In this document: positions 1 to 12,972 of the stretch, piece after piece
Layout: each line of letters begins with the position of its first letter
How positions within the stretch are numbered: position 1 is the stretch's first letter
From: an uncultured virus (IMG/VR IMGVR_UViG_3300027974_001778)
Lineage: Duplodnaviria; Heunggongvirae; Uroviricota; Caudoviricetes
Reading direction: 5' to 3' (one strand)
IMG/VR virus record: IMGVR_UViG_3300027974_001778
Location: 107,476-127,475 of that record
DNA: 20,000 nucleotides
The notes under the pieces: generated by a model
Databases searched by the model: none
What the model was told of the DNA's origin: nothing
Seen by the model: the letters and a program-made list of their open reading frames with translations, nothing else
Program-made: the position numbers and the translations under genes

Positions 1-8
1 TTCCATTG

Positions 9-82
9 TTGGAATAGATGGACTCGAACCATCGACATTCACCGTATCAGGATGACGCTCTAACCAACTGAGCTATATTCCA
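9..82 (-). tRNA. tRNA-Ile(GAT)
   Basis: Reverse complement folds as a cloverleaf: TGGAATA/TATTCCA acceptor, TCATC-CT GAT AC-GGTGA anticodon arm, GGTTCGAGTCC T arm. Confidence 0.93.
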
Positions 83-94
83 TTGTTGTTGGTA

Positions 95-102
95 CAAAGA
101 TA
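95..102 (-). promoter_or_regulatory. Bacteroidetes-type -7 promoter element TATCTTTG upstream of tRNA-Ile
   Basis: Matches TAnnTTTG; the same motif recurs upstream of other transcription units in this window. Confidence 0.6.
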
Positions 103-117
103 CTAATTTTATTTTAT

Positions 118-152
118 AAAAAAAATCCCCCTGACTTTTAATCAGAGGGATT
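118..152 (-). terminator. Intrinsic terminator after ORF 176-625
   Basis: AATCCCTCTGA/TCAGGGGGATT hairpin followed by a long T run on the minus strand. Confidence 0.75.
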
Positions 153-175
153 CAATATTAAATTTAAAAAATATA

Positions 176-625
176 CTACTTTAAAAATCTTAATTTGTAT
201 ATTGTTGAATAAATTAATTCTTGAACCGTATCTATTTGGTTTTGAATAAACGATTCTTTAACTCCTTTTCTTACTTTTTCAATCATGTAGTCTAATGATT
301 TAAAATAATTAATTACTTGGTCAACACTTTTATAATCCTCAGTTTTTGCTGAGTCATAATTTTTAACAAGGTCGTACTTACCTTGGTAACTTTCGATAAT
401 ACCGTCCACTAATTTGTCTATACCCTCATAATATCCTTGTAATGCTTTATGTTCTGAATATGATTTGGTTTGTAAATGAAAAATATGAACTTGAGTTTGA
501 GAATGTAATAGTGTTGATACCATATTCTTAAATCCTGAGTTACTTTTAGTTTCAGACTTATTTTCCTGCTCATTCAAATGCATCACTTTGAATAGTTGTT
601 CTTTTGTTAATGTTAATTTATCCAT
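176..625 (-). CDS. Ferritin/Dps-like four-helix-bundle phage protein (DUF5856-like)
   Basis: HIFHLQTKSYSEHKALQGYYEGIDKLVDGIIESYQG resembles the Dps H..H/D..E helix pattern; TATTTAT motif just upstream. Confidence 0.7.
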   Translation of the reverse strand: MDKLTLTKEQLFKVMHLNEQENKSETKSNSGFKNMVSTLLHSQTQVHIFHLQTKSYSEHKALQGYYEGIDKLVDGIIESYQGKYDLVKNYDSAKTEDYKSVDQVINYFKSLDYMIEKVRKGVKESFIQNQIDTVQELIYSTIYKLRFLK

Positions 626-660
626 ACAGATAAATAGTCAACATATTCAAAAAATATTTG

Positions 661-732
661 GGTCAACGGACGGTATCGAACCGTCTTCCCGAGCTCCACA
701 AACTCGTGCTTCACCTTAAAGCTTCAAAGACC
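661..732 (-). tRNA. tRNA-His(GTG), acceptor stem with mismatches
   Basis: CGAGT-TT GTG GA-GCTCG anticodon arm, GACGG TTCGATA CCGTC T arm, G-1:C73 extended stem GGTCTTTG/CGTTGACC. Confidence 0.8.
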
Positions 733-737
733 ATATG

Positions 738-811
738 TTGCGAGAGGCAGATTTGAACTGCCCACCTCAGGGTTATGAATCCTGCGCTCTCACCAAATGA
801 GCTACCTCGCA
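738..811 (-). tRNA. tRNA-Met(CAT), possibly initiator-like
   Basis: TGCGAGG/TCTCGCA acceptor, CAGGA-TT CAT AA-CCCTG anticodon arm. Confidence 0.85.
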
Positions 812-817
812 GTTTAG

Positions 818-889
818 AGGTTCTATTAGGATTCGAACCTAAACTCCAAAATCCGTAGTTTTGTGTGCTATCCGTTACACCATAAAACC
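818..889 (-). tRNA. tRNA-Arg(ACG)
   Basis: GGTTTTA/TAGAACC acceptor, CAAAA-CT ACG GA-TTTTG anticodon arm, GGTTCGAATCC. Confidence 0.92.
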
Positions 890-967
890 TTAGTCACGGT
901 CATTGTCCCATTTTACAACAAGCATCAAAATAACCCATAATAATAATAACCACATATTTTTTTCCAT
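890..967 (-). CDS. Putative 25-aa single-TM micropeptide MEKNMWLLLLWVILMLVVKWDNDRD
   Basis: Hand translation; fills the tRNA-Gln/tRNA-Arg spacer almost exactly; hydrophobic core with charged tail. Confidence 0.45.
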   Translation of the reverse strand: MEKNMWLLLLWVILMLVVKWDNDRD

Positions 968-971
968 TTTG

Positions 972-1042
972 TTATCCGACCTGGATTCGAACCAGAAATG
1001 ACAGTACCAAAAACTGTAGTGTTACCGTTACACCATCGGACA
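972..1042 (-). tRNA. tRNA-Gln(TTG)
   Basis: TGTCCGA/TCGGATA acceptor, ACAGT-TT TTG GT-ACTGT anticodon arm. Confidence 0.93.
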
Positions 1043-1047
1043 ATATG

Positions 1048-1121
1048 TGGACCAGATAGGAATCGAACCTATTACCTTCACATTATGAGTGTGCCGCTCT
1101 AACCGAATGAGCTACAAGTCC
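1048..1121 (-). tRNA. tRNA(CAT), probably Ile2 (lysidine-modified) rather than Met
   Basis: GGACTTG...GCACA-CT CAT AA-TGTGA...CTGGTCCA; second CAT tRNA in the array. The Ile2 assignment is inference. Confidence 0.8.
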
Positions 1122-1124
1122 ATG

Positions 1125-1211
1125 AAGCTAAACATTGCTTTCAGGGTTGAAATGGCTCACAGATAAATCCGAATCACCACCTACTGATTTTACAGTATCT
1201 TAGTTTAACTT
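1125..1211 (-). ncRNA. Candidate structured spacer RNA
   Basis: Closing stem AAGTTAAAC/GTTTAGCTT plus TACTG/CAGTA hairpin, flush between two tRNAs. Confidence 0.35.
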
Positions 1212-1214
1212 TTG

Positions 1215-1296
1215 TGGGAGTAGCTGGACTCGAACCAACGAACTCGAAAGAGGGAAGATTTACAGTCTTCTGCCATTGCCACTAGGCGATACTCCC
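1215..1296 (-). tRNA. tRNA-Tyr(GTA)
   Basis: GGGAGTA/TACTCCC acceptor, GAAGA-CT GTA AA-TCTTC anticodon arm, long variable arm. Confidence 0.95.
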
Positions 1297-1301
1297 AAAA
1301 A

Positions 1302-1430
1302 TCAGGAAAGAGGAAGATGGTTCAGTGGACATCCTCTTTTACGATTGGCATTACTAATGGTAGTTTAAACTCCGACGATGTCTTATTCCAACCACTACCA
1401 GGTATTTACATCATCATTCCCCAATCAACC
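1302..1430 (-). ncRNA. Candidate pseudoknotted ncRNA
   Basis: Stems GATTGG/CCAATC and TGGTAGT/ACTACCA, crossing GATGATGT/ACATCGTC, 3' hairpin AAAGAGGA/TCCTCTTT. Confidence 0.5.
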
Positions 1431-1435
1431 TTTAG

Positions 1436-1508
1436 CACGCACGAAAGGGGTCGAACCTCTGACACATAGTTTTGGAGACTACTGCTCTACCATCTGAGCT
1501 ACGCACGT
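1436..1508 (-). tRNA. tRNA-Trp(CCA)
   Basis: GTAGT-CT CCA AA-ACTAT anticodon arm; ACGTGCG/CGTGCGT acceptor; G73. Confidence 0.92.
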
Positions 1509-1514
1509 GTTTAC

Positions 1515-1760
1515 TTAATTAATAAATTCTTCTGTGTTTATGTTATGTTCGTCTAATATTTCGTATATCTTTCCAAACACTAACTCTAAAGTTTCGTACT
1601 TATCAACATCTTTACCTTCTAAAGACCACTCTAAAGACTTTTTAGTATTATGGGTAATTTCCCATAATGCCATAGCCATATCAAAAGACTTAACCGCTCT
1701 TTTATGAGCAATTACTTCATCTTGGTCATTTAAATCAAATTCTAATATTCCTTTTGCCAT
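1515..1760 (-). CDS. Hypothetical phage protein (81 aa)
   Basis: ATG ORF filling the Cys-Trp tRNA spacer, protein-like composition. Confidence 0.8.
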   Translation of the reverse strand: MAKGILEFDLNDQDEVIAHKRAVKSFDMAMALWEITHNTKKSLEWSLEGKDVDKYETLELVFGKIYEILDEHNINTEEFIN

Positions 1761-1774
1761 AATATATATTTTTG

Positions 1775-1846
1775 AGGTCGATACAGGATTCGAACCTGTG
1801 TAAATAGTTTTGCAGACTACCGCCTAATCCACTCGGCCAATCGACC
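1775..1846 (-). tRNA. tRNA-Cys(GCA)
   Basis: GGTCGAT/ATCGACC acceptor, GTAGT-CT GCA AA-ACTAT anticodon arm, U73. Confidence 0.94.
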
Positions 1847-2032
1847 ATTTAACGTTTCTTTAATTTTATATTTTTTACATCTTTTTTTAGGTATCTCAAC
1901 ATAATATGAACCAAATACAGAAATAAAAAGTCCAACATAGTTTTCTCCTTGTTCACTAACTTCTTGTAAAACGGTTCCTTCATATAAATGAGGAAAAATA
2001 TCCGCGCTATCTTTTTTTACAACTACTTTCAT
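1817..2032 (-). CDS. Hypothetical protein (71 aa); 3' end overlaps tRNA-Cys
   Basis: ATG ORF with A-rich upstream region; its stop TAG lies inside the tRNA. Confidence 0.6.
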   Translation of the reverse strand: MKVVVKKDSADIFPHLYEGTVLQEVSEQGENYVGLFISVFGSYYVEIPKKRCKKYKIKETLNGRLAEWIRR

Positions 2033-2044
2033 TTTAATTTATTT

Positions 2045-2263
2045 TTAATGTGTTCCGTTTGTTAATGAAATCCCATGCCTTACTCCTGTAATGAAATCTT
2101 CAATTTCTTCTTCGGTCATATTGTTATATCTCTTACCGACAGTATGTCCAATCTCATTACCACAATCACTTAAATCTCCTTCGTATATTGTTACATCTGA
2201 TTTTCCTTTCAAAGATACAGAAATCCAAGATAAATCACTACTGTTAAATGTTCTTTTTTCCAT
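2045..2263 (-). CDS. Hypothetical protein (72 aa)
   Basis: ATG ORF tightly packed with its neighbours. Confidence 0.7.
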   Translation of the reverse strand: MEKRTFNSSDLSWISVSLKGKSDVTIYEGDLSDCGNEIGHTVGKRYNNMTEEEIEDFITGVRHGISLTNGTH

Positions 2264-2268
2264 ATTTT

Positions 2269-2892
2269 TTAATTTAATGAATTTGGGTAATACAATAATG
2301 TCGGGTTCTTTTTTTGGATATCAACCTCGGGATATCTTTCCTTAAATTTCATCACATTAAAAGGTTGAGTTATAATATGGAACCCACTTCTTGTTTTAAT
2401 AAAAGTCATTCCTTGTTCTTTTCCCGCCTCTTTCTGTAACTCGTTTATATATTCTCTCATTTTAATTTGACTTGGAGAATGGTTAAATCCATCAATGGAT
2501 ACATTATCAATATCAATAATCCATCTTTTCTCTTGAGTCTTTATCTGTCCCACAACCGAGTCAAATAACCCCTTTTGGTTCTGAACTCCATTCTTAATTC
2601 TCTCAGCCAAACTTGCCAACATATCCAAAGACACATCTCTGTGATTTTGTTTCTGAACATGAATGTAAGCTCTTGCCTTGAACATCTCACATAATTGCAT
2701 CACCTCATCATATCTCCTTTCCAAATGGTCAACTGATTCAATGCAATATGTTTTAATAGTTCTAACCGACTGATGGTTATCTCTTTCTCCTTCAGGTTGG
2801 TCTTTCTTACGTTTGAAAACATACAGCATATAGAAGTCACCCTTCTCCTCAAAGTTCAATAATGGTTTTATTATGTCTATATTGTTTATCAT
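2269..2892 (-). CDS. Phage protein with AEP (primase-polymerase)-like motifs
   Basis: WIIDID and KTRSGFHII resemble AEP motifs I (hhhDhD) and II (S/TxxGhH). Start reassigned to ATG 2892 because the longer ORF start lies in a T-arm. Confidence 0.55.
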   Translation of the reverse strand: MINNIDIIKPLLNFEEKGDFYMLYVFKRKKDQPEGERDNHQSVRTIKTYCIESVDHLERRYDEVMQLCEMFKARAYIHVQKQNHRDVSLDMLASLAERIKNGVQNQKGLFDSVVGQIKTQEKRWIIDIDNVSIDGFNHSPSQIKMREYINELQKEAGKEQGMTFIKTRSGFHIITQPFNVMKFKERYPEVDIQKKNPTLLYYPNSLN

Positions 2893-2906
2893 ATCATTTT
2901 TTTTTG

Positions 2907-3009
2907 TTGTTAAGGTGGGATTCGAACCCACAACGTAGTCTCGTAAAGAGAATCATCACCGTTTCGACTTACCGAGCCCTGTGCTCGTTTACATATCTAC
3001 TACTTAACT
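2907..3009 (-). ncRNA. tRNA-like RNA lacking canonical D and anticodon arms
   Basis: GTTAAG/CTTAAC acceptor-like stem and perfect GTGGG TTCGAAT CCCAC T arm; interior has other hairpins. Confidence 0.55.
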
Positions 3010-3010
3010 T

Positions 3011-3345
3011 CCTACCCCACTTCACCAGCTTAACGGACTGGCTGCCATATGGGAGTGGGGGTTTCCCGTTAATTCGGGACTCCGCGATGTTGCGGGAATC
3101 GAACCCACTCGATGAACTACTTGTGATATGCACCAACCATTTGCTCCAATCCTAGTATTAAGGAGTGTTACCTACAAATCACCATCATTCAACCCTTTAA
3201 CACCAAATTTGACTACTGACTGACTCCTTTCGAACTTTGAGGGTTTGTATCATTCAATATCAGTAGTCCAAGGCTGTAGGAGCTCATCTTTACACTTAGG
3301 CTCTTTGTCTTCTCATGTTGCAACATTTACGACCGTAGCGTCACC
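3011..3345 (-). ncRNA. Candidate large structured ncRNA (~335 nt) with internal T-arm
   Basis: No credible ORF, higher GC, many complementary segments, a predicted pseudoknot, GTGGG TTCGATT CCCGC. Confidence 0.55.
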
Positions 3346-3352
3346 TTGTTTG

Positions 3353-3425
3353 TGGTACGAGGTGGGTTCGAACCACCGACAACTTGTTCTTCAGACAAGC
3401 ACTCTACCAACTGAGTTATCGCACC
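3353..3425 (-). tRNA. tRNA-Phe(GAA)
   Basis: GGTGCGA/TCGTACC acceptor, CTTGT-CT GAA GA-ACAAG anticodon arm. Confidence 0.94.
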
Positions 3426-3430
3426 AAGTT

Positions 3431-3500
3431 TAAAGTTAAAGTCGCCCACACTTGTTCGGGGCGGGACCTTTCGGTCACCTTCGACATCCCCTCAACTTTA
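3431..3500 (-). ncRNA. Candidate 70-nt multi-stem RNA
   Basis: TAAAGTTGAGG/CTTTAACTTTA closing stem, GACC-GAAA-GGTC GNRA hairpin, CGCCC/GGGCG stem. Confidence 0.45.
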
Positions 3501-3713
3501 ATTCACTTCAATATCTTCCAAAGGTACATCTTCTCCCTGAGTATGTTTATAAACTGTATTAAAAAACTCTCCTAACAATCTATAGTCCTCAGGAATCATA
3601 TGACAAAAATCAAATGCAGGAATTGCACCATGAATTTGACCTTGTACTACCTTATCAAACTTATCATCTGGTTTGTACTCAAACACAGTATGTCCTCTAA
3701 AAATATATTTCAT
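3498..3713 (-). CDS. Hypothetical protein (71 aa)
   Basis: ATG ORF, co-oriented with the operon. Confidence 0.7.
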   Translation of the reverse strand: MKYIFRGHTVFEYKPDDKFDKVVQGQIHGAIPAFDFCHMIPEDYRLLGEFFNTVYKHTQGEDVPLEDIEVN

Positions 3714-3714
3714 A

Positions 3715-3814
3715 ACTTCCGATTTTGTCTTGTTTTTACTTCCGAATTTGGACGGGTTTTACTTCCGACTTTGTCACTGCTCACATTTGAGGAAGTTTAC
3801 TGCTCAAATTTGAG
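3715..3814. repeat. 23-bp periodic imperfect repeats
   Basis: ACTTCCGA..TTG at 3715, 3738 and 3761; ACTGCTCA.ATTTGAG at 3776 and 3799. Confidence 0.7.
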
Positions 3815-3821
3815 ATTTATG

Positions 3822-3894
3822 TAGTCCCTGTAGGAATCGAACCTACGACAACTTGCATGTAAGGCAAGTGCTCTTCCAACTGAGCTAAGAGACT
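3822..3894 (-). tRNA. tRNA-Val(TAC)
   Basis: AGTCTCT/AGGGACT acceptor, CTTGC-CT TAC AT-GCAAG anticodon arm. Confidence 0.93.
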
Positions 3895-3899
3895 AAATG

Positions 3900-3973
3900 T
3901 ATCGCGTACGGGGCTCGAACCCGTAATCTTCATCGTGAAAGGATGACGACTTAACCAATTTGTCCAACGCGAC
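3900..3973 (-). tRNA. tRNA-Glu(TTC)
   Basis: GTCGCGT/ACGCGAT acceptor, TCATC-CT TTC AC-GATGA anticodon arm. Confidence 0.94.
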
Positions 3974-3983
3974 ATTTGTTTCA

Positions 3984-4015
3984 CAAAGATACAACCAATA
4001 TTTCAAAGAGCCAAA
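3984..4015 (-). promoter_or_regulatory. Bacteroidetes-type promoter TTTG-N20-TATCTTTG directly upstream of tRNA-Glu
   Basis: -33 element at 4012-4015, -7 element at 3984-3991. Confidence 0.6.
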
Positions 4016-4018
4016 AAC

Positions 4019-4053
4019 AAAAAACCCTGAACTTCATTTCTGTAGTTCAGGGT
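4019..4053 (-). terminator. Attenuator terminator 1
   Basis: 10-bp stem ACCCTGAACT/AGTTCAGGGT plus T tract; 5' arm is complementary to leader segment 4105-4114. Confidence 0.85.
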
Positions 4054-4075
4054 ATATAAAAAATTTGGTTTATTT

Positions 4076-4186
4076 TTAGTTTAAAAAATTATTCAAAATT
4101 ATATCCGAACTACATGACTGCATACGCTCATACCAACAAGTTTCTTGTTGTTGACTAAAGACTGTATGTTTTATTGTAGTTCTCAT
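4076..4186 (-). CDS. Putative attenuation leader peptide 1 (36 aa, MRTTIKHTVFSQQQETCWYERMQSCSSDIILNNFLN)
   Basis: ATG 18 nt after a consensus promoter; codons match the downstream tRNA set; contains the antiterminator strand. Confidence 0.75.
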   Translation of the reverse strand: MRTTIKHTVFSQQQETCWYERMQSCSSDIILNNFLN

Positions 4187-4204
4187 TGTTTCTAATATAT
4201 AGTT

Positions 4205-4235
4205 CAAAGATATGAAAAAATCTTTGAGTGTCAAA
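4205..4235 (-). promoter_or_regulatory. Bacteroidetes-type promoter TTTG-N19-TATCTTTG for leader 1
   Basis: -33 element at 4232-4235, -7 element at 4205-4212. Confidence 0.75.
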
Positions 4236-4260
4236 TATTTTTCCAAGTATTTATAAAAAG

Positions 4261-4680
4261 ATGAAGACATTAAGAGAAATTATTAAAGAAAATTTATTAG
4301 TTGAGAAAAGAATAACTCAAGTTAACTCATCTTTAGAAGTTTTATTTGTATTTGATGTGAATAGAACCAGTCATGCGTTCGATAGAGATACTAGAGATGA
4401 TATTGAAGGATATAACATAAGAGCGATTGAGAATGATGAAATCAGAGAAATTATCAGTAAGGTAAAAAAAGAAATCTCCGAAAAAATAGTAACAAGAGAA
4501 ATTGTACCTGAAGAAGATTTTGTCGTAAAATCTTTAAAGTGGGAATTGGCAATGGCGATAACTCCTGTTCATATGGGAGGAACCTATTGGCAACTAATCA
4601 TCAAAACAGTATTTAGAGAATCCAATCATAACCCTTTTAGAGTTGGTAAAAATCAATTGGTTATTTATTCTGACATCTAA
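4261..4680 (+). CDS. Hypothetical phage protein (139 aa)
   Basis: ATG 4261 follows TATTTAT (4248-4254); N-terminus LREIIKENLLVE. Confidence 0.8.
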   Translation: MKTLREIIKENLLVEKRITQVNSSLEVLFVFDVNRTSHAFDRDTRDDIEGYNIRAIENDEIREIISKVKKEISEKIVTREIVPEEDFVVKSLKWELAMAITPVHMGGTYWQLIIKTVFRESNHNPFRVGKNQLVIYSDI

Positions 4681-4681
4681 T

Positions 4682-4770
4682 AAAAAAGGGTAACACTAGT
4701 ATCTGAATCGTTCCCGTGTTACCCAGTTTGTAATTGAGCTTGTGTATCTAAATCGTGCTCCTCAATCACA
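4682..4770 (-). ncRNA. Candidate two-hairpin sRNA with repeated loop motif ACGATT(T/C)AGATAC
   Basis: Own TATCTTTG promoter (4774-4781); hairpins TGTGATTGAG/CTCAATTACA and GGGTAACAC/GTGTTACCC followed by T6. Confidence 0.65.
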
Positions 4771-4833
4771 ATACAAAGATACAAAAATATTTTGGTTTAC
4801 AAAATCTATTGTATTTTTTTTTTATAAATATTG

Positions 4834-4914
4834 TACCCCAAGTCGGACTCGAACCGACACGACTTACGTCACAAGTTCCTAAAACTTGAGTGTCTACCAT
4901 TCCACCATCGGGGT
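4834..4914 (-). tRNA. tRNA-Leu(TAG)
   Basis: CAAGT-TT TAG GA-ACTTG anticodon arm, long variable arm, ACCCCGA/TTGGGGT acceptor. Confidence 0.94.
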
Positions 4915-4920
4915 ATACAT

Positions 4921-5010
4921 TATCATCGCTCCAGCCACATCGAGGAACACGCCGCCCCCGCGTTGTTTAAGTGTATGAATTGCGCCGTATCTCACTGAGT
5001 TACGATGATA
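4921..5010 (-). ncRNA. Candidate 90-nt stem-closed RNA
   Basis: Perfect 8-bp terminal stem TATCATCG/CGATGATA, GC-rich interior, flush between tRNAs. Confidence 0.5.
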
Positions 5011-5014
5011 ATTG

Positions 5015-5088
5015 TGATTCGGAAAGGATTCGAACCTTTGACCCCAAACTTAGAAGGTTTGTGCTCTATCCAGCTGAGCTACCGAACC
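5015..5088 (-). tRNA. tRNA-Arg(TCT)
   Basis: GGTTCGG/CCGAATC acceptor, CAAAC-CT TCT AA-GTTTG anticodon arm. Confidence 0.94.
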
Positions 5089-5094
5089 AAATTT

Positions 5095-5190
5095 CCCCAC
5101 CTGAAATCCCAGTGAGTAGATATTCGCAGTTTTTCGTATTGAAAAACCCAACGCGTCTTACCGCTTAAAAAGTCAAACATACTCGGTGGC
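5095..5190 (-). ncRNA. Candidate structured RNA
   Basis: CCACC/GGTGG, GAGTA/TACTC and GTTTTTC/GAAAAAC nested stems. Confidence 0.45.
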
Positions 5191-5296
5191 GTTGTTACGA
5201 CCATTCTCCGAGACCCCCTCTTAAGGCCGTGGTAGGAAACAACCATAACATCTTTAAAGAACGTTACCAAACTTGATGAGTACTTCTAACTCATTG

Positions 5297-5378
5297 TATC
5301 AGAGGTGGGACTCGAACCCACACGAGCAAAGCTCAACAGATTTTAAGTCTGTCTTGTATACCATTCCAACACTCTGAC
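5297..5378 (-). tRNA. tRNA-Leu(TAA)
   Basis: ACAGA-CT TAA AA-TCTGT anticodon arm, long variable arm. Confidence 0.94.
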
Positions 5379-5387
5379 ATTGTTTTA

Positions 5388-5395
5388 CAAAGATA
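5388..5395 (-). promoter_or_regulatory. TATCTTTG -7 element upstream of the tRNA-Leu/Arg/Leu unit
   Basis: Matches TAnnTTTG, 9 nt upstream of the tRNA. Confidence 0.6.
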
Positions 5396-5418
5396 GTGAA
5401 TATCTTTAATAAAGTCAT

Positions 5419-5451
5419 AAAAAAACCCCGAACTTTTTTAGTCGGGGTTTT
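5419..5451 (-). terminator. Intrinsic terminator after ORF 5469-6188
   Basis: AAAACCCCGA/TCGGGGTTTT hairpin plus T tract. Confidence 0.8.
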
Positions 5452-5468
5452 AATTATAATAATTATTA

Positions 5469-6188
5469 TTAATCATTAAAACTTTCCTCGTAATAAGTAT
5501 CGCTTGCGTTATCTTCTATATTTTCTGTATGAACCAATTCGATTGTCATATCATGAAAATTGAATATAAATTGTCCATCAGAACCTTCATTAATTTCCCA
5601 ACCACTATAGTTATCACTAAGCTCTCTGTAACACCAATCTTCAATTGCAGCTGGAACTCCATCACCTGTTTCATTAAAACTACTTTCAAGATATCCCGAA
5701 TCACCAGAACCATTATATGTTACTATTAAAATCCCATCGTCAGGAATTGTAAGGTCTTCTAATACTCCACTTTCTTCCCATTCTTCAAATAGCTCCTTTC
5801 CTTGTTCATCCTCCCAAGTAACTGAACTACCTTCTCCTCTAGTATAAAAAGACCACCAACGAGTAAAACTAATTTTTTTAGAATCTACGTCAATGTCGTA
5901 TTCAAGTCTTTGATAATTCGTATCATCATTATCAGGTTCTCTAATTAAATTATTATCATCGCAATATTTCATAATTTTTTGAAGTATTGGAATCAATCCT
6001 GATGGAATATCTGCATTGTAGTTATTAGTGAAATGGGTTACATAATCCCAATCAACATTGTCATAATCAAATTCCTCTTGATTATCCATATCAATTTCAA
6101 TGTTGCCGTCTTGCATTCCCATTGAACCTAAGTAATTGGATATTCTTCTTAAATATTGTTTTTCTTCTGGTGTTAAAATTCCTTTCAT
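5469..6188 (-). CDS. Acidic protein with C-terminal DUF6878-like domain
   Basis: YNGSGDSG...SGWEINEGSDGQF motif, recalled as DUF6878-like; sits next to a DUF6915-like gene. Confidence 0.6.
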   Translation of the reverse strand: MKGILTPEEKQYLRRISNYLGSMGMQDGNIEIDMDNQEEFDYDNVDWDYVTHFTNNYNADIPSGLIPILQKIMKYCDDNNLIREPDNDDTNYQRLEYDIDVDSKKISFTRWWSFYTRGEGSSVTWEDEQGKELFEEWEESGVLEDLTIPDDGILIVTYNGSGDSGYLESSFNETGDGVPAAIEDWCYRELSDNYSGWEINEGSDGQFIFNFHDMTIELVHTENIEDNASDTYYEESFND

Positions 6189-6199
6189 ACTTATAAATA

Positions 6200-6553
6200 T
6201 CAGTCGTTGAACTCTAGTTTAATTGTTTTTAACATCCATTGAGGACGTTGATTTGTTGATACGTTATTTATCCATTCTTTGGCAGATGGAATGTAGTTAT
6301 TACAATCTTCTTTAACATGTTGTTCTCCAACATATCTGGTGTAGACTGTAGTCCCGTCGCTATTCTTAAATTCGGCCCCAAATCTTTTTTCCATTTCAAA
6401 AATACCCTCACTATGATGTCTAAACATTCTATGAAGTGAATCTCCAAACCATCCTTTAGTCTCATCTAACCATTCATGTAGATGAATATAGTCTTCAGGT
6501 TTTCCACCAAATTTTTTGGCGGATGATTTTGCATGTAAGTTAGGGTGTGCCAT
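6200..6553 (-). CDS. DUF6915-like His-rich protein
   Basis: HAKSSAKKFGG..EDY..HEW.D..K...HR..RHH.EG...EQHVKED pattern. Confidence 0.7.
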   Translation of the reverse strand: MAHPNLHAKSSAKKFGGKPEDYIHLHEWLDETKGWFGDSLHRMFRHHSEGIFEMEKRFGAEFKNSDGTTVYTRYVGEQHVKEDCNNYIPSAKEWINNVSTNQRPQWMLKTIKLEFND

Positions 6554-7118
6554 TTTTCCAAGAGTCTTTATTGTAGTTAAAATATACGAAATCTTCTTCT
6601 AAATAAGAATAAACATAATCAGCCAAATCTTGGTCATAATATTCTTTATAATCATATCCTGATGAATAACCGTTGTTTAAAATGTTATCATACACAATAT
6701 CAAAAAGTTCATGTGAATCATCCATAAAAAATGGAAGTTTTAATATGTCTGAGTATAAATTCTCAACTCTAATTAATAAATCAGGAGTTTTGGTAATCCT
6801 TTTTTTTAAAAAAAATTCATAATCCAAAGTTTTGCCAGGAAATTTTATTTCTTCATGCAATTTTTGTCTAATCCAACTATTAAAGTCATTAGGAATTAAA
6901 TTAGAGTGTATACAAAAAAGATGATATATTGAAATCATTCTGATATATGGATTTCTTGTATTTAAAACAAAAAAATATTCTTCTTTACCTTTTGGAATTT
7001 GCAAACCATGTAGTCCAATAACGTCAAATTCAAAGTATGTTTGAATAGGCATGCATGACCTTGCTGCCGTTCTAATAGGTGTTGCCCACAATACTTTATA
7101 TTTGTCAGAATAATTCAT
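6540..7118 (-). CDS. Sulfotransferase family 2-like protein
   Basis: RNPYIRMISIY (3'-PB motif), IRVENL and YKEYYD...EDFVYFNY; the 5'-PSB motif (PIRTAARS) is divergent. Confidence 0.7.
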   Translation of the reverse strand: MNYSDKYKVLWATPIRTAARSCMPIQTYFEFDVIGLHGLQIPKGKEEYFFVLNTRNPYIRMISIYHLFCIHSNLIPNDFNSWIRQKLHEEIKFPGKTLDYEFFLKKRITKTPDLLIRVENLYSDILKLPFFMDDSHELFDIVYDNILNNGYSSGYDYKEYYDQDLADYVYSYLEEDFVYFNYNKDSWKNGTP

Positions 7119-7351
7119 TATAAAATCTTTTCTTGTCTTCTTCTTGCCATTTCAGCGTCTTTGTACCATCTAATCCAAGTTAAAGACACATCAATTGGTG
7201 CTAACACCCAAGCCATAACCATAACCATAATAGTATCTAATTCAGGAGACCCACCTGTTGGGTCATCACTATACCTTTTACTAAGGTTTTTAAATAACTG
7301 ATAGAAACAATATATTACACATACAAGGTAATATCCAATAAACATACTCAT
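7118..7351 (-). CDS. Small two-TM membrane protein
   Basis: Two hydrophobic segments; start moved to ATG 7351, downstream of tRNA-Thr. Confidence 0.7.
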   Translation of the reverse strand: MSMFIGYYLVCVIYCFYQLFKNLSKRYSDDPTGGSPELDTIMVMVMAWVLAPIDVSLTWIRWYKDAEMARRRQEKIL

Positions 7352-7366
7352 AAATAAAAATTTTTG

Positions 7367-7439
7367 AGCCTCCTGTCGGACTCGAACCAACGACCACTTG
7401 TTTACAAAACAAGAGCTCTACCAACTGAGCTAAGGAGGC
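7367..7439 (-). tRNA. tRNA-Thr(TGT)
   Basis: GCCTCCT/AGGAGGC acceptor, CTTGT-TT TGT AA-ACAAG anticodon arm. Confidence 0.95.
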
Positions 7440-7442
7440 TTA

Positions 7443-7517
7443 TGGAGCAGATGAGAGGAATCGAACCTCCGTCTCCTACTTGGAAGGAAGGAGTAATGAC
7501 CATTATACGACATCTGC
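7443..7517 (-). tRNA. tRNA-Gly(TCC) with encoded CCA
   Basis: GCAGATG/CATCTGC-T-CCA; CCTTC-CT TCC AA-GTAGG anticodon arm. Confidence 0.93.
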
Positions 7518-7573
7518 GTGGAGTGCAGTGGGAGGTACCTTCCCTGTGGTTACTACACATTTTATCCACTTTG

Positions 7574-7646
7574 CGGTCCCGACGGGATTCGAACCCGTAT
7601 CTCGCACCGTGACAGGGTGGAATTGTAACCATTCAACCACGGAACC
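7574..7646 (-). tRNA. tRNA-Asp(GTC)
   Basis: GGTTCCG/CGGGACC-G acceptor, CACC-CT GTC AC-GGTG anticodon arm. Confidence 0.93.
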
Positions 7647-7674
7647 GTGTATGGGGAGTTTCACCCCAAACTTT

Positions 7675-8163
7675 TTACTCAACAAAGATATGATTATATT
7701 CCAATATTCTTCGTTTTAATTTATTAACATATTGTGGGTCCTCGGCATAAACTTTACCGAGTAATGCAAAATATTGTTTTTTTGTCATATCATTACGTGA
7801 TTTTAACATGTGGTCTTGCCACAATGAGTAATCATACACGCTATACCCCCAATCTTCGTATTTTGAGTAACCACTTTGGGTTTCCCCAATCTTTGCGGAT
7901 TCTCTTTTACTTGGAACTTTCATTCCAAAAAGATTATTAGCTGATTTGAACAACTTTGATGTAAACTCTCCTGATTCTAATATAGCTTGTGCAAACACAA
8001 TATCAGGAAATTTTATACCATACTTAATTATCTGCTCATACAAACTTTCTTTTGAGATACTCTCTTGAGTATTTGATTCAATCTGTACTTGCTTCTCTTG
8101 TGCTTTGGTTGCCATTGTTCCTAACAATAACATCCCAGTCAATAAGAATGTTTTTAACTTCAT
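7675..8163 (-). CDS. Secreted GH73 glucosaminidase/muramidase (FlgJ-like peptidoglycan hydrolase)
   Basis: Signal peptide; AQAILESG, NNLFGMK and YAEDPQY motifs. Confidence 0.88.
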   Translation of the reverse strand: MKLKTFLLTGMLLLGTMATKAQEKQVQIESNTQESISKESLYEQIIKYGIKFPDIVFAQAILESGEFTSKLFKSANNLFGMKVPSKRESAKIGETQSGYSKYEDWGYSVYDYSLWQDHMLKSRNDMTKKQYFALLGKVYAEDPQYVNKLKRRILEYNHIFVE

Positions 8164-8243
8164 TTCTTTCTTTTTGTCTGTTTATGCTTCAGGATTGCTC
8201 CATCCACGATACTACAACATTGGAATTTTTCCACCTACCGCAG

Positions 8244-8315
8244 AGGCCCCTGTAGGATTTGAACCTACGACCAGTTGATTAACAGTCAACTGCTCTACCA
8301 CTGAGCTAAAGGGCC
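8244..8315 (-). tRNA. tRNA-Asn(GTT)
   Basis: GGCCCTT/AGGGGCC acceptor, GTTGA-CT GTT AA-TCAAC anticodon arm. Confidence 0.94.
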
Positions 8316-8355
8316 TTATAATAATAAATAAAATTTCCAATAAAGGAAACTTTTG

Positions 8356-8429
8356 TCGGGATGGCTGGATTCGAACCAACGGCCTCCACGTCCCAAACGT
8401 GGCGCGATACCTGACTACGCTACATCCCG
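8356..8429 (-). tRNA. tRNA-Pro(TGG)
   Basis: CGGGATG/CATCCCG-A acceptor, CCACG-TT TGG GA-CGTGG anticodon arm. Confidence 0.95.
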
Positions 8430-8434
8430 TAAAT

Positions 8435-8465
8435 AAAAAAACCCTGAAGGATAAGTTCAGGGTTT
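8435..8465 (-). terminator. Attenuator terminator 2
   Basis: AAACCCTGAA/TTCAGGGTTT stem plus T tract ending 5 nt before tRNA-Pro; CTGAACTTA is complementary to leader segment 8504-8512. Confidence 0.85.
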
Positions 8466-8486
8466 AAATAATTGGCTATAATATTG

Positions 8487-8585
8487 TTACCAACCACTCG
8501 CTTCTGAACTTACGCATATAGTGCCCCCATCTCCATTAGGAGTTGTCGGCGTGTCTAAATTTGTATTTGTGTTCATAGTTTTCAT
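8487..8585 (-). CDS. Putative attenuation leader peptide 2 (32 aa, MKTMNTNTNLDTPTTPNGDGGTICVSSEASGW)
   Basis: Hand translation (below the ORF-track cutoff); 17 of codons 5-22 are N/T/D/P/G, matching the downstream tRNAs; contains the antiterminator strand. Confidence 0.8.
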   Translation of the reverse strand: MKTMNTNTNLDTPTTPNGDGGTICVSSEASGW

Positions 8586-8640
8586 AGTACAATATTACAA
8601 TAAATATATTCAAAATCAAATAAATCCCTATTTTAGTTTT

Positions 8641-9360
8641 TTAAGGTAATGTGTTACTACCTTTCAGGTAAAAGTCACCTACAACTTTTGGTCTTAATTC
8701 TGTACCTGAGTACGTACTATAAACTCTGTATTCCCCAACAGGAATACGAGTTCCCGTGTAATTTAAAACATAATCAGATAATGTAGAATTAGTATTGAAA
8801 GGAGTTCTATATATCATATTGGTATGCGCACTAGACATTCTTGATTGTCTCCAATTTGGGTTAGGTGTTGCATTCACAGGAATTAATACCATAATCCACA
8901 CAAATTGATTATTAACTAAAGGACCATTAATTTTAACCGTTCCAAAATTATACACACCTGCCGAAGTTTGTGTAATATTTGATTGAATGACTGTAGGTAA
9001 TGTTCCATTATACCAATACGGCATATCAATATAATTTAACAAATCAGTATAATTTGTTGATTTGATTGGTGACCCAGTAAAAAAACCATAAAATGGAGTG
9101 TTTGTCGGGGTTTGTGTACTACGAGGTCTTGTCTTTAAATAACTCACAATCATATTGAGTTTTGACTGAGGCTCAACAAAAATATAAACCTTTGGTCCAA
9201 CTGATGAAACAGTCGGAGATGTTGACATTGTTCTTAAGTCTTCTCCTTGAGTTGATTCAATTGAAGTTTGTTTAACTGGGTCATACACGTCGTCTTTTGT
9301 ACAAGATACAAATAATACCGATGTTGCGAAAATTGCAAGAAATAATTGTTTTAGTTTCAT
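8641..9360 (-). CDS. Predicted lipoprotein
   Basis: MKLKQLFLAIFATSVLFVSC lipobox; TATCTTTG promoter at 9376-9383. Confidence 0.8.
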   Translation of the reverse strand: MKLKQLFLAIFATSVLFVSCTKDDVYDPVKQTSIESTQGEDLRTMSTSPTVSSVGPKVYIFVEPQSKLNMIVSYLKTRPRSTQTPTNTPFYGFFTGSPIKSTNYTDLLNYIDMPYWYNGTLPTVIQSNITQTSAGVYNFGTVKINGPLVNNQFVWIMVLIPVNATPNPNWRQSRMSSAHTNMIYRTPFNTNSTLSDYVLNYTGTRIPVGEYRVYSTYSGTELRPKVVGDFYLKGSNTLP

Positions 9361-9429
9361 AGTTGTCTTTTTTTACAAAGATAATAAAATAATTTGATTT
9401 TGAAAATTATTTACAGATATTTATTCTTG

Positions 9430-9531
9430 ATGATAGACAATAATATTACGTGTCTTTTGGGAATTAACCAAAAATATGAGAACTCGGGAACGTTGAGATG
9501 TGGAAAACCTCGAACCATAAACTATTGCTAA
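9430..9531 (+). CDS. Possible leader peptide 3 (33 aa, MIDNNITCLLGINQKYENSGTLRCGKPRTINYC)
   Basis: Follows TATTTAT (9418-9424) and precedes terminator 9548-9575. Confidence 0.4.
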   Translation: MIDNNITCLLGINQKYENSGTLRCGKPRTINYC

Positions 9532-9547
9532 ATCATTGGGATATTTT

Positions 9548-9575
9548 AAAGGGGTCGAAGTTCGTCCCCTTTTTT
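9548..9575 (+). terminator. Intrinsic terminator
   Basis: AAAGGGGTCGA/TCGTCCCCTTT hairpin plus T tract. Confidence 0.7.
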
Positions 9576-9678
9576 GTTTTTATCATCCAAATAAACTATG
9601 TTTGTAAAAATTGGATAAAATGTTTAGTAGACTAAATCCAAATATATATAAAAACATTACCGTCTAAACAATTACAGA

Positions 9679-12420: not shown

Positions 12421-12483
12421 CATCTAAAAAAGATTCAATAAAATTTATATAAAAATTTCTTATCTTTGATAAAAGCGGATAAA

Positions 12484-12972
12484 ATGAGTACGGTATTGGT
12501 ATTAAATTATGATTACACCCCCCTAAATGTTACAACTATAAGGAGAGGGTTTGTATTGGTAGATAAGGGTAAGGCAGAGGTTGTTAAATCAGATGAATCA
12601 CCTATTATGACTAGTTATAAGATATACATACGCCCTGTAATCATCCGACTTTTAAAATACATCAAATATCAAACAAGAGGATTAAGAGCCAATAGAACAA
12701 GAATATATAAAAGAGATAGTTATGAATGTGTTTATTGTGGTTCAAAAAAAGATTTGACATTAGACCATGTTTTACCTAAATCAAGAGGTGGTGGAAACGA
12801 ATGGACCAATCTTGTAACATCTTGTTTTAAATGTAATCTTAAAAAAGGTAGTAAAACACCTGATGAAGCCAAGATGACGATGAAACATAGACCTTTCGCT
12901 CCAACATTAATTAATGAGAACGTAGGAATGCAAAAGATTTGGAATGATTATCAAAAATCATTTGTTTATTAG
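12484..12972 (+). CDS. HNH endonuclease (McrA/HNH_5-like)
   Basis: VLVLN..Y.PL, CVYCG, LTLDHVLPKSRGG...W.NLVTSC..CN; TATCTTTG at 12461-12468 favours ATG 12484. Confidence 0.9.
   Translation: MSTVLVLNYDYTPLNVTTIRRGFVLVDKGKAEVVKSDESPIMTSYKIYIRPVIIRLLKYIKYQTRGLRANRTRIYKRDSYECVYCGSKKDLTLDHVLPKSRGGGNEWTNLVTSCFKCNLKKGSKTPDEAKMTMKHRPFAPTLINENVGMQKIWNDYQKSFVY

Follow-up and report, generated by a model that had tools for sequence, protein, structure and literature searches.

The 20,000-nt window analysed here is the last 20 kb of an uncultured virus record of 127,475 bp (IMG/VR IMGVR_UViG_3300027974_001778; 32.7% G+C). On its minus strand, the interval 4019..4235 precedes an operon of eleven tRNA genes (660..3973, minus strand) for Glu, Val, Phe, Cys, Trp, Tyr, Met(CAT), Gln, Arg(ACG), Met(CAT) and His, with small open reading frames (ORFs) between them. 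Our sequence analysis indicates that this interval is probably a functional ribosome-mediated attenuator, of the trp/his type, of transcription of the tRNA operon. Comparison with relatives supports a short leader ORF that lists the amino acids of the downstream tRNAs and is coupled to a four-segment terminator/antiterminator; from this arrangement we infer translation of the ORF, ribosome stalling, conditional termination and the relative strengths of two promoters, P1 and P2.

Organization of the leader module

The putative promoter P1 (4205..4235, minus strand, as is the whole module) consists of TTTG at 4235-4232 (position -33), a 19-nt spacer and TATCTTTG at 4212-4205 (the -7 box). We take this TTTG/TAnnTTTG layout to be that of Bacteroidota-type promoters; a sigma-70 scan at P1 also returned TTGACA-N16-TATCTT. 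TATCTTTG is present in 24 copies in the 127-kb genome, where about 10 are expected, nine of them within positions 1-12500 of the window, and the copies mostly stand 10-30 nt 5' of a start codon or tRNA. Because of this over-representation and placement, the boxes of P1 and P2 were taken as promoters.

The leader ORF (4186-4076, minus strand; ATG at 4186, TAA at 4078-4076) comprises 36 codons plus the stop and encodes MRTTIKHTVFSQQQETCWYERMQSCSSDIILNNFLN. Its codons 2-25 (4112..4183, minus strand) make up the putative sensor region, with at least one codon each for E, V, F, C, W, Y, M, Q, R (CGT) and H. Segment 1 (GAACTACA, 4175..4182, codons 2-4) can pair with segment 2 (TGTAGTTCGG, 4105..4114, codons 25-28, conserved core xGUUCRG). 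Segment 2 can pair instead with segment 3 (CTGAACTACA, 4041..4050; the terminator 5' arm plus three loop bases) to form an antiterminator, and in the lineage of the window this 2:3 helix has an extension, AUAUAA (4104-4099) with UUAUAU (4059-4054). The intrinsic terminator (4012..4053) is built of a 10-bp stem (4053-4044/4033-4024), a 10-nt loop and a U-tract at 4024-4012 (T6-G-T5). Past it lies the putative promoter P2 (3984..4015), with TTTG at 4015-4012, 20 nt and TATCTTTG at 3991-3984, which ends 10 nt before tRNA-Glu (3973-3899, minus strand), the first gene of the operon.

The original prediction, made from the letters of the window, had described P1 as TTTG-N19-TATCTTTG followed by a 36-codon ORF at 4186-4076, and this was confirmed base for base. 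Its segments 1-3 and its 10-bp hairpin terminator (4053-4024, with the U-tract) were likewise correct in all coordinates and sequences, and the second promoter-like motif that it placed behind the terminator at 3984-4015 is there, with the box at 3991-3984 just before tRNA-Glu. Two further statements, that 16 of the 21 codons 5-25 encode E, V, F, C, W, Y, I/M, Q, R or H and that N, D, P and G are missing from the first 27 codons, agree with our reading of the ORF, as does the sequence given for codons 5-25. A longer version of the ORF, with 64 codons from an ATG at 4270, was considered and rejected; it would overlap P1 and the start of the opposite-strand gene 4261-4680, and it is not credible because that gene is conserved.

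Close relatives, found through neighbouring proteins and the leader peptide, keep the frame of the leader ORF, with an in-frame 3-nt indel, and they keep P2. The peptide parts CWYERM and CSSD are conserved among them, as is, at the nucleotide level and to a high degree, the spacer from stop codon to terminator. A search of Rfam with positions 1-10000 of the window (E up to 1) returned only tRNAs and sub-threshold noise, and thus no family for the leader element.

Folding of the 189-nt leader gave -44.6 kcal/mol against -27.5 +/- 3.7 kcal/mol for shuffled sequences (z -4.56), a value that none of 200 shuffles reached. The predicted duplex energies were -10.8 kcal/mol for the 8 bp of 1:2, -15.1 kcal/mol for 2:3 and -16.6 kcal/mol for 3:4. 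In a fold with segment 1 masked and before synthesis of segment 4, the 2:3 helix, lengthened by the AUAUAA/UUAUAU extension, was the structure of lowest energy.

The leader carries a codon for each tRNA of the operon

It had been claimed that every amino acid of the operon tRNAs is represented in the leader. Data showed that this is so: all ten (E, V, F, C, W, Y, M, Q, R and H) fall within the 24 codons 2-25. In random 24-mers of this phage's composition, such coverage had a simulated P of 1.3e-4, and among 23,158 windows of 24 residues taken from the long ORFs of this phage it was seen once. The number of codons on the tRNA list, 16 of 24, also exceeded the background of 0.34 (p = 1.2e-3). 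The claim that the leader codons follow tRNA gene order held in part. V-F and C-W-Y do match the order of the genes, while collinearity over the whole leader is weak (longest common subsequence of 7 versus 5.3, reached by 175 of 2000 shuffles). As a design rule, collinearity of leader and tRNA gene order was rejected, since the summed longest common subsequence of 99 stood against 92.8 +/- 3.6 and was reached by 108 of 2000 shuffles; it is modest in the family whose tRNA block opens with Glu (Glu-first) and absent or reversed in other leader types.

To collect relatives, we used the pattern GTTCRGA-N35-60-CCCYGAAC-N4-16-TTCRGGGTTTT, which describes segment 2 and the terminator only and contains no ORF or tRNA criterion. 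There were 94 matches in viral sequences and at least 123 in metagenomic ones; 80 loci of each set were fetched, and the family figures given below refer to these 160 loci, reduced to unique modules or leaders for each test. Same-strand tRNA genes were found downstream in 80/80 of the fetched viral loci and behind all fetched metagenomic modules except three whose sequence ended 27 nt or less farther on. A scan of 596 Gb of cellular genomes with the pattern gave 8 matches, none with a tRNA within 2.5 kb; these are ends of long genes or unrelated leaders, so the pattern by itself does not bring tRNAs.

The leader ORF is also a property of the family. An in-frame ATG (frame xGT-TCR-GAx) lies 23-27 codons before segment 2 in 47 of the 49 unique viral modules, the two exceptions being a frameshifted module and one cut by the contig end, and at the same spacing in 75 of the 78 metagenomic modules that are uncut at the contig start. 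In 99 unique leaders, the segment 2 core comes 70-82 nt after the ATG. The stop codon is found no more than 17 nt past that core in 97 of them (mode 14 nt, in 59) and stands 24-40 nt upstream of segment 3. A TAnnTTTG box occurs 97-127 nt upstream of segment 2 in 27 of 49 unique relatives.

For every unique combination of a leader with its tRNA list, we then looked for the amino acids of the visible downstream tRNAs among those encoded between leader codon 2 and segment 2. Viral modules with a full 2.5 kb of downstream sequence were completely covered in 38 of 39 cases (276/277 amino acids), and all viral modules in 44 of 45. Mean coverage in the viral set was 0.996, as opposed to 0.665 +/- 0.045 when the tRNA sets were permuted, and none of 5000 permutations reached it. 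The metagenomic modules served as a replicate, with 66 of 68 fully covered (359/362 amino acids). The match extends to the anticodon: 17/17 Arg, 17/17 Gly, 7/8 Ser and 8/9 Leu tRNAs find a cognate codon in their leader, with ACG accompanied by CGT/CGC, UCU by AGA, UCC by GGA/GGG and GCC by GGT/GGC.

The leaders fall into several unrelated spellings, each of which fits its own tRNA block. One type precedes a Pro-Asn-Asp-Gly-Thr(-Ala) block, another a Glu-Val-Phe(-Lys)-Cys-Trp-Tyr-Met-Gln-Arg-His block, and a third a 13-amino-acid block that opens with two tRNA-Pro; an Arg/Leu block has a leader with seven Leu and three Arg codons (L060), and a Gln-Val-Phe-His-Ser-Arg block has yet another type. 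Within types, leader and cargo change together, as can be seen from counts of modules in which the amino acid is present in both, in the leader only, as tRNA only or in neither. Among 27 Glu-first modules these counts were 19/4/0/4 for Val, where the four leaders without a Val codon all lack a tRNA-Val in view, and 19/5/0/3 for Lys; among 24 modules opening with Pro (Pro-first) they were 20/1/0/3 for Asp and 9/8/0/7 for Ala. In three modules a tRNA-Asn has been inserted after tRNA-Cys, and their leaders have gained Asn codons. The class in which the tRNA is present and the codon absent was empty in 12/12 such tables.

The sensor regions of 87 unique leaders favour codons that the genes of this phage use rarely, in a comparison that is not corrected for relatedness or structural needs: CCG has a share of 0.48 in leaders versus 0.05 in genes, GGG 0.34 versus 0.08, CGT 0.40 versus 0.11 and GAG 0.52 versus 0.19, and GGC, TCG, GTC and TGC are enriched as well. 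Rare codons of this kind would sharpen a sensor.

The putative antiterminator covaries

The search pattern forces GUUCRG and CYGAAC and leaves agreement between R in segment 2 and Y in segment 3 free. At this position 44 unique sequences showed A:U in 29, G:C in 14, G:U in 1 and a mismatch in 0/44. Segment 2 is more than a repeat of segment 4, since the latter carries a G opposite U in 17 cases. The next outward 2:3 pair, which is free of the pattern, was paired in 33 of 44 sequences (A:U, G:C, U:A and G:U) versus 19.3 +/- 2.6 in shuffles, and 0/2000 shuffles reached that number. Segment 2 encodes the peptide part CSS[DE], whose first residue changes in step with the opposite base of segment 3; the residue before TCR varies between S, G and C because the first base of its codon is this next outward position.

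In an alignment of 27 Glu-first leaders, 89% of the 2:3 cells are paired. Twelve sequences show a double-sided change at one pair, and the 2:3 covariation score exceeds those of 500/500 shuffles. The 3:4 helix is paired in 94.8% of cells across the same 27 members, and the terminator of close relatives contains a compensatory U-A to C-G change. Covariation of the segments across homologs had been put forward as a check, and for 2:3 the outcome is positive (44/44; score above 500 shuffles). Upstream, the best partner of segment 2 falls in codons 1-4 in 37 of 47 unique modules, and the sequence of segment 1 differs by leader type (GAAC plus UACA, ACAAU, CU or UAAUA), each matched on the opposite side.

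Distant relatives and a paralogous leader

In five larger records, we went through the whole tRNA regions and looked ahead of every block for a short ORF, a terminator and a sequence able to pair with the 5' arm of that terminator. In one (L129), the terminator is ACCCACCC/GGGUGGGU and its segment 2 partner is AGGUGGGU; the leader, MRNLDIILLGTTEAIGLTQVGMV, stands before tRNAs Ala Asp Met Gly Gly Leu Thr Ile Leu Glu Met and contains eight of these eight amino acids. In another (L128), the terminator ACCUCGGAAC/UUCCGAGGU is matched by UUGUUCCGA, and the leader covers 12/12 amino acids. A Glu-first module in a third (L126) has GGACUACAG as segment 3, matched by CUGUAGUCU. Unrelated stems thus come with a matching segment 2, so the architecture is retained where the sequence is not. 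Judged by sequence, these distant relatives with other terminators are the strongest structural argument for a regulated switch.

The window itself holds a second leader module (8439..8585, minus strand), with an ORF at 8585-8487 encoding MKTMNTNTNLDTPTTPNGDGGTICVSSEASGW and a terminator at 8465-8439. It precedes tRNAs Pro, Asn, Asp, Gly and Thr, and its peptide is rich in N, T, D, P and G. At the nucleotide level the two leaders align at the start (ATGAAAACTA), in segment 2, in the spacer and in the terminator, and differ in their middles; going by this alignment, they are paralogous modules. The tRNA-Pro gene begins 9 nt past the U-tract with no promoter box between. A promoter would not fit into this gap, so that read-through is the sole route to its transcription that the sequence shows. 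Apparent reliance on read-through in the absence of an own promoter is therefore found at the paralogous 8585-8439 leader and not at the 4019..4235 module. As a side observation, relatives of the Pro-first leader that also have a tRNA-Ala often read GDAGT, not GDGGT.

The second promoter, the displaced stop codon and RNA contigs

Several features of the window copy and of its family weigh against the attenuator that we propose. The TAnnTTTG box of P2 is found in every Glu-first spacer, and in 31 of 45 unique spacers overall. Since P2 is conserved after the terminator, the tRNAs could be made without the leader, and attenuation here can only add to their transcription and does not gate it; the caveat of the original prediction, that attenuation may boost rather than gate expression, is strengthened by the conservation of P2 in all Glu-first modules. 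The stop codon of the window copy lies 26 nt past the segment 2 core, the extreme among the 99 leaders, owing to a 1-nt deletion that it has in common with its closest relatives. A terminating ribosome would therefore be located between segments 2 and 3, and not on segment 2; a stop placed so as to mask segment 2 is the rule in the family (97/99) and is absent here, and the window copy may be leakier or work differently.

The leader codons also leave a remainder. The claim that all of them are on the tRNA list does not stand, as the operon lacks a tRNA for 5 of the 24 sensor codons (four Thr and one Lys). Segment 1 of Glu-first leaders is the Thr-Thr pair ACU-ACA, which accounts for two of the four Thr codons; Lys codon 6 is unserved, with tRNA-Lys nowhere in this phage, although most relatives have one. 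Over the family, the mean share of on-list leader residues was 0.60 versus 0.36 in permuted sets (counting tRNAs seen within 2.5 kb), and residues found in the leader only are common; this class stems partly from the 2-3 kb horizon, and another part of it looks like relics or structural codons. Each amino acid has one to three scattered codons, without runs as in hisL or trpL, and sensitivity to any one tRNA is therefore expected to be low. Codons 22-25 adjoin segment 2, so a stall there should favour termination.

On the structural side, the 2:3 helix is not conserved beyond 7 bp, positions 2-5 performing no better than shuffles, and the 10+6 bp version is limited to the window lineage, where it is the longest in the family. 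The 1:2 helix is 81% paired in the Glu-first family with invariant pairs and no double-sided change, and it is weak in the Pro-first (paralogous) leader. Once all four segments are present, the terminator form has the lowest energy, so the switch is taken to be kinetic, as an assumption of the model.

The RNA data consist of assembled contigs from four metatranscriptome runs, in which ends, strand and levels are not readable and stretches without a contig carry no information. One contig of 217 nt (X2; depth 2.6, one mismatch) spans 4179-3963, that is, from leader codon 3 through the terminator and P2 into tRNA-Glu. It is weakly suggestive of read-through from P1, with which it is compatible, and it could also be DNA carry-over.

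P2 encloses a motif, TCTTTGAAATATTGG (4009-3995, minus strand), that appears as GTTCTTTGA-N2-TAT in other modules, at most related loci. It resembles the P1 sequence TCTTTGAACTATAT (4210-4197), and the two are the sole copies in the genome. The motif could be a promoter part, an operator or the 5' end of a tRNA precursor.

Proposed mechanism and alternative explanations

In the mechanism that we propose, a transcript from P1 would begin about 10-13 nt upstream of the AUG, and a ribosome would read the 36-codon leader, whose codons 2-25 hold at least one codon per tRNA species of the operon. If a listed codon were slow, its tRNA being scarce, uncharged or cleaved, the ribosome would lag. A stall at about codons 3-20 would cover or pass segment 1 and leave segment 2 free, so that 2:3 could form; the terminator would then be absent and RNA polymerase would continue into tRNA-Glu and the rest of the operon. 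During fluent decoding, the ribosome would be on or past segment 2 before segment 3 emerged, allowing 3:4 to form and transcription to stop at about 4020. With no ribosome, 1:2 and 3:4 would form and transcription would stop too. In most members of the family, a ribosome at the stop codon would sit on segment 2 and the terminator would form, and in the window copy the attenuator would add demand-dependent transcription above the basal level from P2. As read-through would yield the tRNAs that relieve the stall, the circuit would amount to negative feedback on tRNA supply.

The alternative nearest to this mechanism keeps the sensing of the listed codons and assigns the output to something other than a simple structure switch, with 2:3 complementarity in a minor role. 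In its variants, read-through interferes with P2, termination depends on Rho or a phage protein, or the leader RNA or peptide is the product. The presence of P2 and the conserved motif TCTTTGAAATATTGG directly past the terminator in most modules, the displaced stop codon of the window copy and a conserved antiterminator of just 7 bp are what one would expect from it. We nevertheless consider it unlikely, in view of the covariation of 2:3, seen also in modules with unrelated terminator stems, the fixed distances from ATG to segment 2 and from segment 2 to the stop, and the Pro-first modules, which have no promoter between terminator and tRNA; all of these agree with the classical switch. The logic could also run in reverse, with fluent translation giving read-through and a stall giving termination. 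Such a scheme would suit the window copy, in which a terminating ribosome leaves segment 2 exposed, and would agree with the masking of segment 2 by stalls at codons 22-25. We regard it as very improbable: a ribosome at the stop codon would occupy segment 2 in 97 of 99 leaders, it would be unable to melt the terminator directly with 24-40 nt between stop and segment 3, and the result would be positive feedback on tRNA supply, for which there is no evident use.

Two further explanations dispense with sensing altogether. The leader might be a small phage gene of the ordinary kind, flanked by a promoter and a terminator of its own, with the tRNAs driven by P2 alone and the match having no function. 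The order of gene, terminator, TATCTTTG promoter and tRNAs is indeed general in the region, as it recurs with the terminator at 153-123 and the box at 102-95 (tRNA-Ile) and with a terminator near 5420 and the box at 5395-5388 before tRNA-Leu, and CWYERM and CSSD are conserved in close relatives. Chance coverage of about 1e-4 for this leader alone makes such an account hard to sustain, and so does the recurrence of the checklist in 38/39 and 66/68 modules, also at the anticodon level, with leaders that change along with the tRNA cargo and with unrelated peptides and terminators; CSS[DE], moreover, is encoded by segment 2, and its first residue tracks a segment 3 base. We give this explanation only a slim chance. 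Least probable of all, in our estimation, is a structured small RNA that is not translated and has a promoter and terminator of its own, the ORF being incidental. The strong fold (z -4.56) and the highly conserved spacer between stop and terminator in close relatives would fit an RNA product, yet relatives conserve the frame, the start distance and in-frame indels, the genetic code is the sole link to the tRNAs, and Rfam has no family match. The attenuator reading has strong comparative support.

Genomic setting

The record contains 21 tRNA genes, all on the minus strand and in one region, and codes for a T4-type portal and large terminase, as expected of a T4-like myovirus. The best matches in a terminase search were below 31% identity, so that no close cultured relative emerged; the nearest named phage was a Flavobacterium phage. 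In a DNA search of cultured phages the tRNA genes alone were matched, and the leader was shared by none in the collection. We infer that the host belongs to the Bacteroidota. The cloverleaves of the two CAT tRNAs do not distinguish Met from the ATA-reading Ile2, and so do not bear out the proposed match of the leader codon ATA to an Ile2 anticodon.

The last gene of the Glu-to-His unit, at 176-625 (minus strand), matches the PHROG family phrog_858 (E 2e-23), annotated as a starvation-inducible transcriptional regulator. On its 3' side is the strong terminator 153-123, the next one past the unit, and then a new TATCTTTG box (102-95) before tRNA-Ile. Upstream of the leader lies the opposite-strand gene 4261-4680 (plus strand, 139 codons), 81-100% identical in relatives. 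A TATCTTTG box at 4774-4781 (minus strand) faces the 3' end of this gene and has no minus-strand ORF behind it; relatives have two minus-strand genes in its place (L006 12796-14093), and the box is perhaps a relic or else the promoter of an antisense RNA. Elsewhere in the window, RNA-library contigs from two runs connect 6550 to 7116 and omit the 565 nt between, so some circulating relative is without ORF 6540-7118.

A number of observations concern the relatives. An insert of about 110 nt stands between the P2 box and tRNA-Glu in several loci (L006 14352-14455, plus strand; L015-L021, L024 and L025); its ends can pair (GAAATAC...GTATTTC), and it may be a small structured RNA. In the Arg/Leu module L060, the first ~400 nt past the terminator contain, after promoter boxes, an apparent 5' half of a tRNA-Leu followed by an ORF-bearing insert. 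ARAGORN calls no tRNA in this stretch, which may be an interrupted or intron-bearing tRNA gene. L128 (record G002) has on its reverse strand, at 931, a tRNA with a CUA anticodon that ARAGORN labels Pyl, which suggests amber-codon suppression or recoding in that relative; the window genome has no such tRNA. Chance matches to the search pattern on contigs of Chloroflexota metagenome-assembled genomes (L255, L259 and L260) consist of a short ORF rich in Arg codons and a terminator, followed by a gene starting MVNRVPVKKVVLAY; with the identity that we presume for this gene, the arrangement resembles an ordinary arginine leader-peptide attenuator.

Discussion

Leader-peptide attenuation is known for genes that make amino acids. 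Enterobacterial examples are trpL, hisL, leuL and pheL, together with the multivalent thrL (Thr, Ile) and ilvL (Ile, Leu, Val). For pheL, see PMC3082878. The phage module shares with these systems a short ORF with regulatory codons, here predicted, a likewise predicted choice between 1:2 plus 3:4 and 2:3 with an intrinsic terminator and U-tract, a stop codon near segment 2 (in the family at large) and, as we propose, the reading of a stall as shortage. It differs from them in that tRNA genes, not biosynthetic enzymes, lie behind the leader, so that the output would repair the very defect that is sensed. The phage leaders list 5 to 13 amino acids with few codons each, whereas the amino-acid-operon leaders contain runs of one or three; and the setting is a phage, with Bacteroidota-type promoter boxes and, in the window copy, a second promoter after the terminator. 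No sequence relationship to the known amino-acid-operon attenuators was found in Rfam.

T-box riboswitches, which control synthetase and amino-acid genes of Gram-positive bacteria, need no ribosome: the RNA itself binds one uncharged tRNA, at its acceptor end and by way of a specifier codon. In both cases the state of tRNA is sensed and a 5' leader switches between terminator and antiterminator; unlike the T-box, the phage leader would sense by translation, and many tRNAs at once. No T-box match was returned by Rfam for positions 1-10000 of the window (E up to 1). Large lytic phages such as T4 and T5 carry tRNA gene clusters, and the T4-like myovirus studied here has in common with them tRNA blocks with small ORFs between. 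We know of no leader-peptide control of T4- or T5-type tRNA clusters, and full-text searches of the literature outside subscription journals turned up no account of leader-peptide control of tRNA genes. The proposed mechanism is that of a textbook attenuator; what is new is the tRNA product, the checklist leader and the phage setting.

With slightly less confidence than for the window copy itself, we think it likely that widespread uncultured T4-like phages of fresh and marine waters run a closed-loop controller of tRNA supply. Each tRNA block would stand behind a rewritable checklist mini-gene that releases it when any of the served codons is slow, and the module would have been duplicated within genomes and its coding part re-spelled with each change of cargo. 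The same attenuation logic that governs amino-acid genes appears to govern tRNA genes themselves, in a virus. The comparative signal, a codon for nearly every tRNA and a leader rewritten with its cargo, makes the idea directly testable. If it is true, the leader would be a natural multi-input sensor of the decoding speed of up to 13 tRNA species at once, and it could be used as a compact reporter of tRNA shortage. Should host defences or phage-induced shut-off deplete particular tRNAs, the phage would have in this device a built-in sensor and counter-measure. Confirmation of the idea would also show that phage tRNA sets are expressed on demand and not constitutively, which would help to explain why phages carry tRNAs and when they use them.

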